Shown piece after piece: positions 12,065 to 20,887 of a stretch of DNA of 64,000 nt; positions within the stretch are counted from its first letter, which is position 1, and each line of letters opens with the position of its first letter. The notes under the pieces were generated by a model. The model saw only the letters and a program-made list of their open reading frames with translations, was not told where the DNA came from and did not search any database. The DNA comes from Sarea resinae (Eukaryota): positions 558,001 to 622,000 of the forward strand of contig JAPEUD010000001.1 in NCBI GenBank assembly GCA_026026165.1, read 5' to 3'. Made by a program: the position numbers and the translations under genes.

Positions 12065-13672
12065 ATGGACACTCCGAAGGTGGAGGAAGAGGCCTTGGCT
12101 GCCCGTCTGGCTACCAAGTCGTCCTCGCTCGACAGGCCGCCGCCCGAGATCGTCGACCTCCTCTCGGACGGCAATGATACTGATGATGGCGGCCGCGAAG
12201 AGGGCCAGAAACACGAACACGGGCACGGACACGACGGCGACGCGTCGGTAAATGGGCACGAGTCCGCTGAAGTCTCGGACGAGGGCGCCTGGGAGACGGA
12301 CTCTCTCTACGAGGACGCTTTCGAAGGCATGGGCGACGAACAGCTGGCTCACGGTGGTATGTTAAAGAGATAGCTCCTCACGCGAGACGTCATTCATTAA
12401 AAAACTATAGTCGACGGCTTCTGCACGCTCGAGGAAGCCATGGCCTTTCGGACACAGCTGCGCGAAGTCGGCGAGCACCAGTTCATCGCGAACACCATCG
12501 AGGCCGGCACCGTGAGCGCGAAGAAGCTCTGCACCGCATTCGGCATCCGGCCACCGGCCTTTCTCGACGGCGCGCCGGACAGCGCCTACTACCCCTTTGT
12601 CGGACTGGGCATCTCGCGCGAGCTCTCGAAGCGGGCCAAGCTAGCCGCGTACAACACCGTCGACGACGTCGTCGAGCTGCTCAAAACGAGCCGCAACATC
12701 GTCGTGCTCACGGGCGCCGGCATCTCGACCTCGCTCGGCATTCCCGACTTCCGCTCCAAGGAGACGGGCCTCTACTCGCGCCTCGCCCACCTCGGCCTCT
12801 CCGACCCGCAGGAGGTCTTCGACATCGACATCTTCCGCCAGGACCCGTCCATCTTCTACAGCATCGCCGCCGACATCCTGCCCACCACCAAACGCGTCTC
12901 CCCGACCCACGCCTTCATCGCCCTGCTCCAGCAGAAACAGAAGCTCCTGACCAACTTCACCCAGAACATCGACAACCTCGAGACGCTGGCAGGCGTGTCA
13001 CCGGAAAAATTGATCCAATGCCACGGCTCCTTTGCCACGGCCACATGCGTCAAATGCAGACACCAGGTCCCGGGCTCGGACATCTACGACGACCTCAAAG
13101 CCGGCCGAGTAGCGCGCTGCAAGCAATGCCTGCGACTCCTCCAGGTCGCCCGAGCCGCCACCGCCAATGGAAACGGAAGCGGGAAGAAGAAGAGGAAGCG
13201 AAGCCCCAACGGCGCGCAAGCGGACCGCAAACGCCGCTCGCACGACTGGACGGCCGACGACGACGACGAGCCGGACGACTCGCCCGAGCTGCAAGCCGGC
13301 GTCATGAAGCCCGACATCACCTTCTTCGGCGAAGACCTGCCGTCGTCCTTCCACACGCGGCTGGTCCAGCACGACCGCGACCTGGTCGACCTGGTCCTCG
13401 TCATCGGCACCTCGCTCAAAGTGGCCCCCGTGTCCGAGATCGTCGGGTTCCTACCGCCCACCGTGCCGCAGGTGTACATCTCGCGCACGCCCGTCTCGCA
13501 CGTCAATTTCGACGTCGACATGCTGGGCGATTGCGACGTCGTCGTGGCCGAGCTCTGTCGCCGCGCCGGCTGGCCCCTCGAACACGAGATGGTGAAGTCA
13601 GAGCAGAAGGCCGTCGTCGAGCGCATCGAAGGCTTTCAGAGTCGGTGGGCTTTCAAGCTTGCTGACGACTAG
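12065..13672 (+). CDS. SIR2: NAD-dependent histone deacetylase, Sir2/Hst1 class
   Basis: 2 exons (12065-12356, 12411-13672). Sirtuin motifs [29 protein letters not shown], CxxC..Cxx[20 protein letters not shown]. Confidence 0.95.
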
Positions 13673-13698: not shown

Positions 13699-14149
13699 CT
13701 TTGCAGACAGGAGGAGCTTCGTGAGCATCTGTTTATTCGCATCTACACAACACAACGGCGCGCGTTAGGGAGCAAATGACTGGGATGGCATGATATCGGG
13801 TTCTCTATTTCATTCAGGGTCTTTCTATTCGGAGCATCTCATTTCACACGCTAGAGGCGTCGGCGTCGGCGCTATGTCTTTCCCTTCATCAGCTTTTTAG
13901 CATGGCTACGTTTTCTACGTTCAATCTCATCTTCACAGCGGCATCAATTCTTATGAGGTACCTATCAATAGACTCAGGTAGCGCTATGGCAGCTATTGCG
14001 CTACCACATCTCACTTCGGGCACAGACTGCGATGACTCAGAATGGGCTTATTGATTCTACCCGAGAATGATGTCTGAAATTGCTCTGTAGTCGCTGGAAC
14101 TTTTGCGAATCGATATTGAATCGAATCTAACAAGCACATAGCACTTCCC

Positions 14150-15250
14150 ATGAACCCTTATAACCATCCCCCTCGAGGCAGCTCAAGCTAGCCCGCCTTT
14201 CCCCATCTCCCCATCTCCCCATCTCCCTATCCCTCGCGACAGGAAACCCTTGGAAAGAAAACCCCGAACCTGACTCAATCAATCAGCAAACTGTCCTCCA
14301 TTACCTAGTGCCCCGGGGGGGCAGGGCACACAGCGCGCCCAAAAGTAAGAAATGTTCAAAGAGAAAAAAAAAGGCATCAGATCAAGTGTAGATTAGAATA
14401 ATCGACATACGGCTTCTTCCGCATTTCCCCTTTCTCCACTTCTTCCAACCCGAGAGAAGGAAACTGGGGGAAAGAGGAAACGAAGAAACCGGTCCGCATT
14501 GCAGAATTCTTGCTTGCTCATCATATGTGTGGATATCTCGTGTTCTCCTGCACGAGCAGCAGGGAGAGAGGCTCGATGGTATAAGGGAAAGGCGGACAAG
14601 TAAAGGAGAGAAAAAGTTCGTGGGACGTACCGTGGGGTGAACTTCATGTTGGCCGATTCCGTGATAAGAGGCTGCTTATGCTATAGAGATGATGGTATGC
14701 AGGGGGCTTGGCTGCTACACATCTCAATTAATAGCAAGGGAGGTGGAAGCCTGAACTGCACTTCGAGGGGTCATATATGAGCAGGGCATCTTTTGAGACG
14801 GGGGCTTGAAGGTTGTCAGTCGTCAGCGAAGACTGTGTGTCAGTATTCAGCAAGCTCTTGTCAGGAGTCGACGAAGAGTGAGATGCTGAAGAAGATGGAG
14901 ACACCTCGATCCGCGTCAGTAGTGACTGCCGAGCAACAGTGAGTTCTGCATGGCGGAAGGTGCAGAAAGTCAATGTAGAAGAGGGAACGAACGGAAGTAC
15001 GAGTGGTGCGTGTTGAATGGAAAGAATTAAGTGTGATGGGAGTTGCGTTGCTTATGTAATCGGTTTTCTGCCACCGCCTAAACTCACCTACTTCCCCTTC
15101 CCACCATACTATGCCTCTACGGTCGAGGAGGTTTCACTGGTGAGATTTTGAGGAGTTGATTCAGAAAGTCTATGGGAGATGGCATAGACGACTTCTACTG
15201 GGATCTAAGGATGGCGTCATGTGCCTCGAGCAGAACGATGCCTTATATAC
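14150..15250 (-). ncRNA. Probable non-coding, spliced snoRNA host transcript (ends approximate)
   Basis: TATATAA at 15249-15243 (minus strand); 361-nt intron 14630-14270; the spliced product gives only a 20-codon ORF (MKFTPRFGVFF...); no conserved long ORF seen. Confidence 0.5.
14375..14528 (-). ncRNA. Intronic box C/D guide RNA (snoRNA/scaRNA-like) with predicted targets U2 snRNA A30 and 5.8S rRNA G75
   Basis: Minus strand: box C ATGATGA (14524-14518), guide GAATTCTGCAAT (14509-14498), D' CGGA (14496-14493), long hairpin (about 14490-14411), C' ATGTCGA (14408-14402), guide CTACACTTGAT (14391-14381), box D CTGA (14380-14377). It sits inside a GTACGT...GCTGAT...CAG intron (14630-14270). Confidence 0.85.
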
Positions 15251-15393: not shown

Positions 15394-18300
15394 CTACTCG
15401 ATTCCAAATTCCTCTCCCACCACGCCCAATAGTCCCCTGAATTTCCCTAGAACCACTCTGTCTCTCCATGCTACACCCGCTGCCCTAACCACCAGTGGAT
15501 ATAGTCGATGCATATGCTTTCGGTTGTCAGAAGACACACCCGGCGCGTCTGGAATAGCTCTAGGCTCAGCCTCGAGGTCGATCAGCTTTTCAAGAATATA
15601 CAGCAATTCCTTTCGTTGAGAGCTTGGCGTCGGCATGCGGCCTCTGAGAGGCTGATCGGCGATGTAAGCACGAATGGTGATAGCAGCCCGAAGGATGAGA
15701 AATGGTGCGGCAGCCTGGGCAAGCTTGACACGTGGCGGCGAGCCGTCGTGGAGGGAGACGAGAGCAAACAACGTGTCGAGGCAGACGTAGCTCATGCGCG
15801 AACGGAGGGAAGGAGGAGGGTCGTAGGTGCGGCCTAGGCGAGGCTTATAGAGATTCTTTAGGGGCTCAGACGTGCCAAATTGTGGCAATTCGGGAGGTGT
15901 GGGGGAGTGAATGAGAGAGGTGGTGAATAGGCTGGAGCCGTAGGCTCTGCGAACTGAATCCGCAATGGATGGGGAACCGAGTGCTGGGGTTATGAGGTTA
16001 GACAACCGAGTAAAGGATTGGATGTCGAACGTCTCGTCTGCTGCGATACTTGTAAGAGATGAAGCTAGGGACGTATCCGCGGCCAATATACTGCCTATGA
16101 TCTCGACCACTATCTTCCAGTGCTTGTTGATTTCTTCCTCCGCGCGCACTTTTTCTGTCATCACAGGTAAAGCTACTTCGAGGACAGCAACGGTAACAGA
16201 CGTGGCCTTTTTCCATGAGAAAGGCTCCTTCGTCTCAACACGCCACCTATACTTTCTAGCAATAGGTAAGACGAGGCTTTGGAGAGACGTCAGTAACGCA
16301 TCGCCTGCATAGACGTCTGCATCATGGACATGCTCTATGAGAAGGCCCTGCAGTAGGTCCATGGAGATTTTCGACAAGGCGATGAAAGTATGTTCGCGGT
16401 TGCCGACTTCCGGGGGATTCCTATCAAAAGCAAGTGCAACAAAGCCTGCTAGGAGTCGAATAATCCTAGGCGCTGCACCTTTGATATCCGTCCGTATCAT
16501 TTTAACAGCCTCCGTAATTTCTGTTTGCACAGGTGTGAGGTGATCGATATCTGTGGCATATTGCGGGCTATCTGAGCAGCAAACACTTTCGCGAAGATTA
16601 TCCAGGATTTGCTCCACACGTTGGACTGTAAGGTCCTTCTCAATCAGGCGATATAGCTCTTGGAAGAGCTGCACGTAGGCCAAGAAAGCATCTTGATTAT
16701 TCGTTTTGGGTTCCCGAGCGCCACCTTTGGACACAGGAATCTCCTTACACCAGATGTCCCAGACCAGTTCGGCAGACGATCTCCCAATCTTATCGGCATT
16801 TTCCACTTTCGAGAGGACATTCCTCAGCAGCTTGAATACTGTTGTACGAACCTGAAGAGATGGACGCTCCAGGAAGACGGAAAGGTAATGTAAAAACCTC
16901 TGCCAGGAATCGGTGAAATTTTCTTGCCGTACAATAGCATCCAAATAGTTCTCTAGTAATCCAGATATTCCATTGAGCATGATGATAGTTGTTTCGTTCC
17001 AGCTCTTTGTGTGTCGATCCAACGAAGAAGTCGTAGAAGAGTCTGATGGGTGTTTTTGTGAATCATTGGCTTCCATGACTTTGAATATAACGACTCTGAG
17101 ACAGGAGTCCCAGGCTCCAGGGGTCAAATCGTCACCGTATGCGTCGAATATTCTAAGAAGTGTTTGGATTGCGCCTAGGCTTCTTAGTCGTCTTCCACAC
17201 GATAGCTTCAAATTTACTAACCATTTCGGACTTCAGCTCGGTCATCAGTCGTGACTGCTGCCAACCTGAGCAATAGCAGTACCCATAACGCAGCGCCTGA
17301 TACCCGTTTATCATCACTCTCTGCTCGCTCTAGCAAGTTGCTCTCATTTTGGGCCTTCAGTGCTTGCTCGTCGAAGGAAGTATTTCGACTCTGAAGAAAG
17401 TCGGAAACTTCCCAAAAGAACGTGAGTGTCTTCAGAGGTTAGTCATTCGAACATGTCTCTTGGGTGGAGTGGCCTACTGTCAAAGAAACATTGAGATCAT
17501 CTTCTTGGGAGCAAAAACGGTACAGAGCGTCAAGAAGGACCAGTTCACACGTCCTTGGCAATGAGGAGAGAAAATCCGAACAGATGAGCTGAAGACAGCT
17601 GAAAGACGAACGAATCAATTTTGGTGACCGATCACCCCTGGCGGATCGAGGACGAGGAATGACATCTTTCGCTTGATCCTCAGGAGCGGAACCAGGAATC
17701 GTTATCCCGAAGACACTAGCAATGATCTCAAAGACCAGATCCCACCCAGCGACGAGTGACTCCCCACATTGCTCGAGTATCGATTTCAAGGCTTCCAGCG
17801 CTAGTAGGTGGACATCTGTATCAGAGGCATGCGCCGCCACTGTTTCTTCCCGTCCTCCATCGAACAGAGCGATAATCTCTTCTCGAAGCGCAGATAGGAC
17901 CATTCGTTGAATCCTGTTTCGTGAATCGAGCGGCTCAGATGTTGTAGTGGTGGCCGCGGCGATGATAATTGAGTGCAAGACTTCAGCAGCCCGCAATCGC
18001 ACCGACGGACCAACTTGGCTAGAGGAGGCAGCAGAGACAAGCTCTCGAATGAGGACATCCCACCCGCTCTCGGCCGTTTTGCGAGTTGTCAGTCGAGATA
18101 GGTTGATGCTAGCAAGCTCGCCGATTTTGGCCAGAGCAAAATGATGTTCCTGTATCTGCGAGGAAGTATTTGCAGGAAGCCCTGAAATGCTGACAGCTCT
18201 GCGGTGGGACGATGATGGCACCTGCGGACGCAATTTGGCCGGCACAGGAGTATCAACTGAATCAGGCTTCGGCTGTTGCTCTTCAACATCGCCAAATATA

Positions 18301-20887
18301 CCGCAAAGAGCTGTAAGCACGTCCACGAAAGACTCATTCGGAAAATCGGCCGTGCTCTCGAACATCCTATCTGCAGCTGTTTCCACAGCTGAAATCTCGG
18401 AACCAAAGTTCACAAACAGTGAAGACACCTCACCTCCATCTCCGGCATCGTTTTTGCGACCGAGATAAGAACCCTGGCGTCCTACTTTTCTGCTTGCAGA
18501 ATAAATCACGAAATCCGCTTGCTGCAGCGTCTCGAGTACTATGGACCATGCCTTACCTAAGGTTGGACCCAAGGCGATAGCAAGATTCAGAAGTGCCCGT
18601 AAACAAAGTAGGTTTCGCGTGTTAAGTGAAGGAGAGGTACTATCCGCAGAGGGTTGGCGATCTTTCTCCGAAGAAACGGTAGAAGACTGACTGACGATAC
18701 TATCGACGCTCAGGAGCCCTTTAGCATTCGCAAAAATACCTTTGATCTCTGTTGTAGGAGTACTAGGAGCTGAAGAGAAATTGGAAGTCAGGAGAAACGC
18801 TGGAACGGCTGCCTTTCCGAGAGTGGTCAAGAAAGCATCTCTGGGGGTTGAAAGTCTTAATAGGCCCGCAACCTGAGTGAATTTTTGAAATGAGCGAACA
18901 AGGCTATGGTAGTAATCCGTGTCGAGAGCAGCGTGGAGAAAGGTGGAGCAGGTTGCAAGAACAGCCGGCCAGCAGGTGGACACAATTTCAGAGCAGGTTT
19001 TAATTTCCTTAAACAAAGGGTGGTTGTCTAAGCTCAGCGGATTGATCGGGACATGGCTCTTCCGGTGAGAGTGCCTTCTAGATAGCTCCCTAGTTTGCGG
19101 CTCCGACGAGGTAGGTTCTGATGTTATTGGCGAAGAACCTTCCTGCTCGATAGCTGGAACGTTTCTATTCTTCTTCTTCCCCTTTCCATCTGTAGGTATC
19201 GTGAGAGGTAATATAAACTTCGCAAGGCCTTCTGAGAATGCGTTTACGCAAAGCAAGGTAAGGCTGTAGATGTAAGACTCGGGCAAGTTCGGAGGATCTG
19301 ATTTGTCGAGCTGATCAATACATGGGACTCGTACAGAGCTCCATTGGGCGCTGATGCCCGGAACGTTGACTTCGCTCATTGCAACGGGACCACTAATGAT
19401 TCCCGCAACCCCGCCAGCTTCCATTGCAACTTGATCGCCCGAAGAATCCTTCACGAGAGACTGGCCGACTGGCACAGAAGACTGGTACCCAAGGCCAATG
19501 ACACCAGGCTTCTCCGCAGAAAGGCGTACTAAAGCACCCAGATGATCTCCGACGATGTTCTTCTTCCCTTCTTTTTCGTCAAATTGAGCATAGTACTTGC
19601 GAGTAAGTCCAGGCTCTGAATGCAAGCCTCGGAAGATTTCCATGCACAAAGCTCGTTTCCAAGGAGCTGCAGCTTCAGGATCAAGCATGTGAGTGAGAAG
19701 ACTGAGGGCCACCTCGCATTCAGAGACAAGAATACTGAGATGTCTTCTCAATAGAATATATAATACTCTAGCCACGCGAACTGTCGTGGAAAAGCTCTGT
19801 CGCTCTGAGATGGCCCTGATGATAAAAGGCATGACTCGGCCACGAAGCACACTTGCTTGCTCCGCATGCGAAAGGAAGATGTCAGGGTGGTTACTAAGGA
19901 TGGATTCGATCAATTCCAGGCCAAAATTCTGAGGTAAGCCAGTCGAAGAAAGAAACCGCGGCTTTCGGCCCTCAGTCAGCAGGCAGAGATCACTGAATAC
20001 CTATACACCGCATGTCAGGTCTCTGTGCAGTTTTTTGGACTGCTTGCACGTTACGCACTCTATAAGCATCAAGCGCGGCGGGCCGCAGCTGAACGACACC
20101 TTCATCTGTCTCGATTTCCGAGACATAGGAGATTTCGTCTGCCTTTCCTGCTAGCCATCAACACGGATCCTTCCACCTAGTAAAGGTCGGGTCTTAGGAA
20201 AACCTACGATCTTCTGCAGCTACTTTGTCAAAAACAGATACCGACAGCTGCTGCAGCGTCGCAGCTGCCGTGCTGCTTACAACAGCAGTCTTACTCCCTT
20301 GTAAGGTTGAGCATACATGCAGAGCACTCCCTAGAAGCTCTCCCGTCAGAGCATCCGCATAGTTCTGCAATAGAGGCGGAAGGGACTGCAAGATTTTGAG
20401 CTGCACATCAAGGCCTAGCGCATCATAAGCTAAGCTGTCACTTGAGAATGAATACTGCCCTACCGAGTGAAGTTGACTCCCGCCATGCTTCGAGGACATC
20501 TTTCAGGTTGTCTTTCGGCAAGCCGCGAGACACCACGAGCCTCTGCAAGCAGGATACCGCGATACCTGAAAATTTGGCATTACGAGTTTTGCATGCAATC
20601 AAGAAAGGAGCAATGAAGCTCGGTCGCCGCGAAAGGTCTTTTGCATGATCAGAACATAGAAAGGCATATGGCAAGAAAGACAACGAACCAGCAGCAAGTT
20701 GGGCCTCTGAAGTGGAAGGGAGTGCTTTAAGCTCGTTTAACGACTTTTCAGCAGCCTATCATTTCATATGAGCTTCCCAATTAGCTAAGATTGGGGCATC
20801 AACTCATACGTGTCGTAAATCGGAGTTCTTCCTCTTGGAGTCCTGGATTAGGTTGGTGAGTTCAGAGCTCAGGATTTGTGCAGTCAT
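15394..20887 (-). CDS. MON2: Mon2/Ysl2 endosomal Sec7-related (DCB-HUS-HDS) protein
   Basis: Starts MTAQILSSELTNLIQDSKRKNSDLRH. Multi-exon, joining ORFs 20438..20683, 20194..20499, 17439..19913 and 15394..17211. Motifs LDVQLKILQ, CIDQLDK, YHSLVRSFQKF, PRDAFLTTL, YIADQPLRG. Confidence 0.93.

Follow-up and report, generated by a model that had tools for sequence, protein, structure and literature searches.

An intron-encoded box C/D snoRNA in Sarea resinae, very probably an Afu-191 homologue with predicted guides for 5.8S rRNA and U2 snRNA

Described guides for the two target sites

The closest described system is the box C/D RNA Afu-191 of Aspergillus fumigatus, for which 11 cDNA clones, a length of 92 nt and a northern signal of 90 nt were reported (accession AM921920; Joechl et al., 2008, PMC2377427). 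Its gene is listed as intergenic, between Afu1g10270 and Afu1g10280, and Table 1 of that paper gives the putative targets as 'Gm75 in 5.8S and Am32 in U2 snRNA' (PMC2377427). Canzler et al. (2018, PMC5824354) counted only eight C/D families in which two target regions are conserved across the whole range; AM921920, as family CD_35, is one of these eight double guides and was found in Pezizomycotina. A second double guide is CD29 of Neurospora crassa, an intronic RNA of 101 nt with a D guide for U2-Am31 and a D' guide for 5.8S-Am42 (Liu et al., 2009, PMC2780460). Low-dNTP primer extension in N. crassa gave stop signals indicating both CD29 methyls, including the one on U2 A31, and A42 was the single 5.8S methyl predicted in that study (PMC2780460). 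For the U2 guide human SCARNA9 was listed as the homologue, and the Neurospora authors held the fungal U2 guide to be homologous to scaRNA9 (PMC2780460). CD29 (CD_29) was reported solely from Glomerellales and Neurospora (PMC5824354), and its cognates in other filamentous fungi were said to carry the U2 guide only (PMC2780460). These U2-only cognates may be Afu-191-type RNAs in which a different 5.8S guide was overlooked.

Vertebrate scaRNA9 is a Cajal-body RNA and far longer than one C/D unit. The vertebrate comparison drawn in the original prediction, with separate RNAs for the two sites, agrees with the literature: U2 Am30 is assigned to scaRNA9 (mgU2-19/30), which guides U2 Gm19 too and is described there as having no rRNA guide (PMC7960923), and for Gm75 of human 5.8S the predicted guide is SNORD96A (PMC7812721). 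SNORD96A is intronic and 72 nt long, and no snRNA target is named for it in that description (PMC7812721). The human 5.8S stretch reads 71-AAUUGmCAG-78, with G75 methylated to 92% by mass spectrometry, and 5.8S of S. pombe was found by mass spectrometry to be without any 2'-O-methyl and to contain a single pseudouridine (PMC4605285). U2 A30 is the site at which METTL4 turns Am30 into m6Am30 in other eukaryotes, a modification reported as conserved from S. pombe to human (PMC7960923). For filamentous ascomycetes, the literature searched, RiboMeth-seq included, contained no published mapping of a 5.8S methyl at the position equivalent to G75 and no report of a test of it; since S. pombe has none either, the 5.8S half of the present prediction rests on target prediction and on guide conservation.

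The element described here lies in a 64-kb stretch of DNA, the whole of which is called the window. It is a new copy of the known double-guide family RF01499 / Afu-191 / CD_35. With Afu-191 it shares the order of the boxes, the 13-nt D' guide, the D guide and the register of both, and the predicted targets, 5.8S Gm75 and U2 Am32/A30, on one RNA and in that order. The original prediction, which had assigned the D' guide to 5.8S G75 and the D guide to U2 A30 on a single RNA, agrees with what was published for Afu-191. Its description of the RNA as 'hidden', which implied a new combination, has to be given up, as the combination is catalogued as RF01499, as Afu-191 (2008) and as AM921920/CD_35 (2018). 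The discovery value is therefore small: a fungal C/D RNA for these two sites, U2 A30 and 5.8S G75, was published in 2008 and is represented by an Rfam model.

Three features set the window copy apart from Afu-191, and these alone are distinctive in it. It is longer (~150 nt vs 92 nt), owing to an expanded hairpin between D' and C'; its D' box is degenerate, reading CGGA rather than CTGA; and, whereas Afu-191 is listed as intergenic, it was shown to lie in an intron, the host transcript having no long reading frame. N. crassa CD29 is likewise intronic and combines a D guide to the same U2 adenosine with a D' guide to 5.8S, but its D' guide is directed to A42, whereas that of the window copy is directed to the G75 region, which places the window copy outside the CD29 type. 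With vertebrate scaRNA9 the window copy has the guide for U2 Am30 in common, and with human SNORD96A the predicted guide for 5.8S Gm75, the latter being a likeness of description, not of sequence.

Architecture and guide register of the window copy

The coordinates of the snoRNA, of its parts and of the surrounding features are collected in Table 1. As had been predicted, boxes C, D', C' and D follow each other in this order on the minus strand, and all four were read between 14524 and 14377. Box C/D RNAs are recognised by RUGAUGA close to their 5' end and CUGA close to their 3' end; the window copy has ATGATGA and CTGA at these places. In an alignment of 12 homologues (see below), the GATG core of the C box is invariant and the C' box keeps ATG..GA. 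Of the span proposed originally, 14375..14528, the 3' end was retained, while the 5' end was replaced by 14529, at which the Rfam alignment begins. In the fold of the whole element a terminal stem of 2-3 bp is formed between CAU before the C box and AUG at and after the D box. Short terminal stems are common in intronic snoRNAs. When folded alone, the spacer between D' and C' gave a long, almost perfect stem (-38.7 kcal/mol, z -5.3).

Table 1. Positions of the snoRNA, its boxes and guides, the host transcript and the flanking genes in the window.
Feature	Position	Strand	Basis or remark
Whole box C/D snoRNA, Afu-191 homologue	14375..14529	-	~150 nt; RF01499 alignment and profile R1 match
C box ATGATGA	14518..14524	-	letters read directly
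D' guide AGAATTCTGCAAT, 13 nt	14498..14510	-	identical to the Rfam consensus across all 13 nt
5.8S-pairing part of the D' guide, GAATTCTGCAAT, 12 nt	14498-14509	-	13th aligned A at 14510
Spacer nucleotide between 5.8S guide and D' box	G14497	-	
D' box CGGA, degenerate	14493..14496	-	one mismatch to CTGA; aligned to Rfam consensus CuGA
Expanded internal D'-C' hairpin, 82 nt	14410..14491	-	folding of the whole element and of the spacer
C' box TGTCGA, degenerate	14402..14407	-	two mismatches to TGATGA
D guide CTACACTTGAT, 11 nt	14381..14391	-	complementary to U2 nt 26-36
D box CTGA	14377..14380	-	letters read directly
Host intron, 361 nt, GTACGT...AG	14270..14630	-	splice joint in RNA contig, run X1
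Host exon 1 (contig-covered part)	14631..14803	-	RNA contig
Host exon 2 (contig-covered part)	14036..14269	-	RNA contig
Sir2-family deacetylase (sirtuin)	12440-13672	+	PF02146, E 1e-60; flanks the snoRNA host
Mon2/Sec7-like protein	15394-19913	-	flanks the snoRNA host; two open frames

The guide next to the D box was compared with a U2 gene on metagenome contig L002 (RF00004, 130.6 bits, model positions 1-192), which served as the reference for numbering and is metagenome-derived, not the fungus's own. The U2 motif ATCAAGTGTAG corresponds to nt 26-36 of this gene, a segment that borders the branch-site recognition sequence on its 5' side and partly coincides with it. The fifth nucleotide upstream of D is T14385, opposite the second A of AUCAA (U2 A30, human numbering), and A30 of the L002 gene faces the same T14385. 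The claim that the 11 nt before D are the complement of U2 and point to A30 holds against this U2. On L002 itself, a 1.5-kb contig, a U3-like gene (RF01848, 63 bits), the U2 gene and a U4 gene (RF00015, 88.7 bits) follow one another in the same orientation in a space of ~800 nt (positions 60-874), an unusually tight eukaryotic cluster.

At the D' box, the last 12 nt of the guide are complementary to the 5.8S sequence AUUGCAGAAUUC. As a small correction to the original prediction, D' starts one nucleotide after this 12-mer. The fifth nucleotide upstream of D' is C14501, and owing to this one-nucleotide offset it falls opposite the G of AAUUG (5.8S G75, human numbering), so that the target proposed in the original prediction stands. 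The 5.8S target was taken from the literature (human AAUUGmCAG and the Afu-191 prediction), not from the fungus's own gene. The published ITS3 primer, run against viral contigs to obtain a 5.8S sequence, gave 0 matches, so that for its full 12 nt the target depends on the literature and on the motif given in the original prediction. Methylation guides of this class have at least 10 nt of complementarity upstream of D or D', with a known methyl site at the fifth nucleotide; here the U2 guide has 11 nt and the 5.8S guide 12 nt, each with such a site in this register.

To each of the two guide-plus-box motifs corresponds one occurrence in the 64-kb window, against 0.01 expected (100 shuffles). 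A permissive Rfam search of positions 13800-15100 aligned RF01499 (Afu_191) in its full length (model 1-93 of 93) over 14529..14375 on the minus strand with 32.2 bits and an E value of 0.006, which refers to these 1.3 kb. In this alignment both guides, which are upper-case in the consensus, and the four boxes fall on conserved positions, while ~60 nt between D' and C' are insertions. The Infernal/Rfam check suggested with the original prediction thus returned an end-to-end match with both guides, though one below the gathering score (32.2 vs 60 bits). The score is lowered by the ~60 extra nt between D' and C', and because it stays under 60 bits, a default search of the whole 64-kb window at gathering score matched no family, hence no U2, no 5.8S and no other snoRNA.

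Homologues and host intron

Metagenome contigs were scanned for the 15 nt that make up the U2 guide and the D box. At least 118 loci with at least 120 matches were obtained, most of them chance matches without box motifs. The core of the 5.8S guide, an 8-mer with one two-fold position, was present within 200 nt upstream in 14 of the 120 matches listed, whereas 0 of the 120 had it within 200 nt downstream or on the opposite strand of the stretch upstream. By estimate, ~0.7 occurrences of the 8-mer are expected by chance among 120 stretches of 200 nt. L068 was rejected as such a chance occurrence, as no D'-like box stands at the family offset after the 8-mer, and L108 was excluded as identical to L035, leaving 12 distinct homologues among the matches listed. 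The co-conservation of both guides that had been proposed as a check was thus found in these 12. None of the 118 loci listed has a CD29-type D' guide upstream of the U2 guide, as judged by any 9-mer of the ITS2 primer; the 9-mer matches in L014 and L110 do not lie beside box motifs and were judged to be chance.

To obtain a measure independent of the retrieval, the 12 homologues were aligned from C box to C', without the 15 nt used in the scan, and built into a profile (R1). Across both strands of the window (128 kb) the profile had a sole match, 14527..14400 on the minus strand, with 41.9 bits and a rough E value of 2e-12. As this match spans C box to C', homology extends beyond the guide used for retrieval. 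With the motif counts given above, it bears out the original argument that a chance arrangement is unlikely.

Between the window copy and the 12 homologues, the offset of the D'-like box from the guide is constant (13/13), while the letters of the box vary (CCGA in 4, CTGA in 3, CGGA in 3, CCAA in 2 and CAGA in 1). At the guide positions that were free to vary, the only change inside the 5.8S duplex is A-to-G opposite a target U, seen in L003, L071 and L079, which keeps a G-U pair; at the outermost position, beside D', T-to-A occurs in four sequences. Between D' and C' the spacer measures 22-102 nt and folds into a single hairpin in 13/13, with z-scores from -1.1 to -5.3; the hairpins of L035 and L044 are short, at roughly 20 nt. 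A CGGT...ACCG-like stem base is common to 7 of the 13 hairpins; the others are of unrelated sequence. Since the hairpin is shared and its sequence varies, the 82-nt hairpin of the window copy is one among several expanded forms of a common element.

Rfam was run on 20 of the metagenome loci. Six of the 12 homologues were listed at E <=0.01, with 37.5-48.8 bits; none reached 60 bits, the best being L071 (48.8 bits), which, like L044 (45.9 bits), is of A. fumigatus-like length. As the gathering score is missed by the window copy and by 12 of 12 homologues, the RF01499 model is narrower than the family. It seems to be tuned to Aspergillus, and routine annotation therefore overlooks the family outside that genus.

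Seven further loci (L007, L018, L066, L043, L047, L057 and L086) carry the same U2 guide and D box, preceded at 85-121 nt by a C box, with D' halves of other sequence; L018 and L066 resemble each other. L047 weakly matches plant snoZ119 (36.1 bits, under the gathering score of 70). By their sequences, the seven look like U2 A30 guides of other eukaryotes that have either a single guide or a different second one.

The surroundings of the snoRNA were compared with RNA contigs of run X1, a metatranscriptome kept as contigs (0.18 of sampled words) that represents a close relative, not necessarily the same organism. A contig of 399 nt aligns to 14036-14267 and 14629-14803; over these 407 nt, 10 letters differ and 8 are skipped. 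At its joint, 14267|14629, 361 nt are skipped, the ends of which read CT..AC when the cut is moved by +2, corresponding to a GT..AG intron on the minus strand. The placement of the snoRNA inside a canonical intron, claimed from the sequence, is thus backed by a splice joint. A second contig of 151 nt (14274-14424) contains the 3' third of the snoRNA and the intron downstream of it; since it runs past the snoRNA into the intron, it represents unspliced or intron RNA, not mature snoRNA. The two X1 contigs, one spliced and one unspliced, cannot show the ends or the level of the snoRNA, and the stretch 14438-14601, which is without contig cover, carries no weight either way.

Within the host intron of the window a branch-like GCTGAT follows 89 nt after the D box. 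Similarly, 10 of the 12 homologues have a branch-like RCTRAY 51-96 nt past D, and 11 have a 5' splice-site-like motif 29-100 nt before the C-box region, L003 having just 94 nt of upstream sequence available in this check. No long reading frame was present in any frame of the spliced host. With stops in every frame, and an ATG at 14647 in exon 1 that opens merely 19 codons, the host appears to be a snoRNA host that codes for no protein, with the reservation that the contig may be incomplete.

Proposed activity, alternatives and neighbouring genes

These observations are very probably explained by an intron-encoded box C/D snoRNA, homologous to Afu-191, that guides methylation at the equivalents of 5.8S G75 and U2 A30. 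The RNA would be released by splicing and exonucleolytic trimming of the host intron and, by the rules known for box C/D RNPs, would assemble with the proteins that bind stable RNAs of this class, fibrillarin, Nop56, Nop58 and Snu13. Following the fifth-nucleotide rule and the prediction for the homologue, the D' guide would pair with 5.8S and direct a 2'-O-methyl to the G equivalent to human G75, and the D guide would pair with nt 26-36 of U2 and direct one to the A that corresponds to A30 in human. The U2 half is backed by the primer-extension stop at A31 in the relative N. crassa (PMC2780460) and by the m6Am30 reported from S. pombe to human (PMC7960923). The 82-nt hairpin between D' and C' is, as judged from the sequences compared, a lineage-specific expansion of a hairpin present in every homologue, and most likely merely draws the internal boxes together. 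Counted against this explanation were the degenerate D' and C' boxes, the terminal stem of 2-3 bp and the score of 32.2 bits against a gathering score of 60.

The same degeneracy is the starting point of a distinctly improbable alternative, in which the snoRNA is real but guides U2 Am30 alone, the 5.8S guide being vestigial because D' (CGGA) and C' (TGTCGA) have become too degenerate to make up a functional internal box pair. Both boxes do deviate from the consensus, and the literature searched contains no mapped 5.8S Gm at this site in fungi, S. pombe being without it. However, working snoRNAs usually have degenerate D' and C' boxes. A vestigial guide is also difficult to reconcile with the retention of the 5.8S guide and of the D' offset in 13/13 despite very different spacers, even with 8 of the 12 guide positions fixed by the selection of the homologues, and with substitutions in the 5.8S duplex that preserve pairing; moreover, the family was published as a conserved double guide (PMC5824354). 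It is extremely improbable that the arrangement arose by chance or that the element is a decayed copy yielding no stable RNA. This reading could account for a score under the Rfam gathering threshold and for X1 contigs that do not show mature RNA directly, but it is opposed by the single profile match in 128 kb of strand (E ~2e-12), by the expectation of 0.01 for each guide-plus-box motif, by the intact boxes and by an intronic context conserved among the homologues.

The hairpin could also have a function of its own beyond spacing, for example as a source of small RNAs or as a localisation element. Its long, almost perfect stem (z -5.3) would fit such a role, as would the weak hits of several models of microRNA precursors (E 0.31 to 9.2); we nevertheless regard the role as very improbable, as the hairpins of the homologues, at 22-102 nt and with unrelated sequences, fit neutral expansion. 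The matches to microRNA precursors were all far under the gathering scores, at chance level, and this identity was rejected.

With the double guide as the preferred reading, the predicted target of the second half of the RNA is 5.8S G75 in the Afu-191 type, to which the window copy belongs, and A42 in Neurospora CD29. One may speculate, though this is unlikely, that the U2 A30 guide is an ancient fixed core and the other half a slot filled more than once by 5.8S guides in filamentous ascomycetes, under selection for having the modification of U2 and of 5.8S served by a single particle. On this view the D'-C' hairpin, variable among the homologues and 82 nt long here, might be a module peculiar to the lineage that assists the particle in reaching both substrates, not a neutral filler.

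The snoRNA host is flanked by the sirtuin gene and by the gene of the Mon2/Sec7-like protein, which is probably split by an intron. The nearest atlas clusters of the sirtuin are mostly from Ascomycota, the commonest phylum among them. Exon 2 of the host contains a short tandem GGGGAGAT repeat (window 14195-14245, minus strand), and the RNA contig of the relative is without 8 nt at 14200, corresponding to one GGGGAGAT repeat unit.
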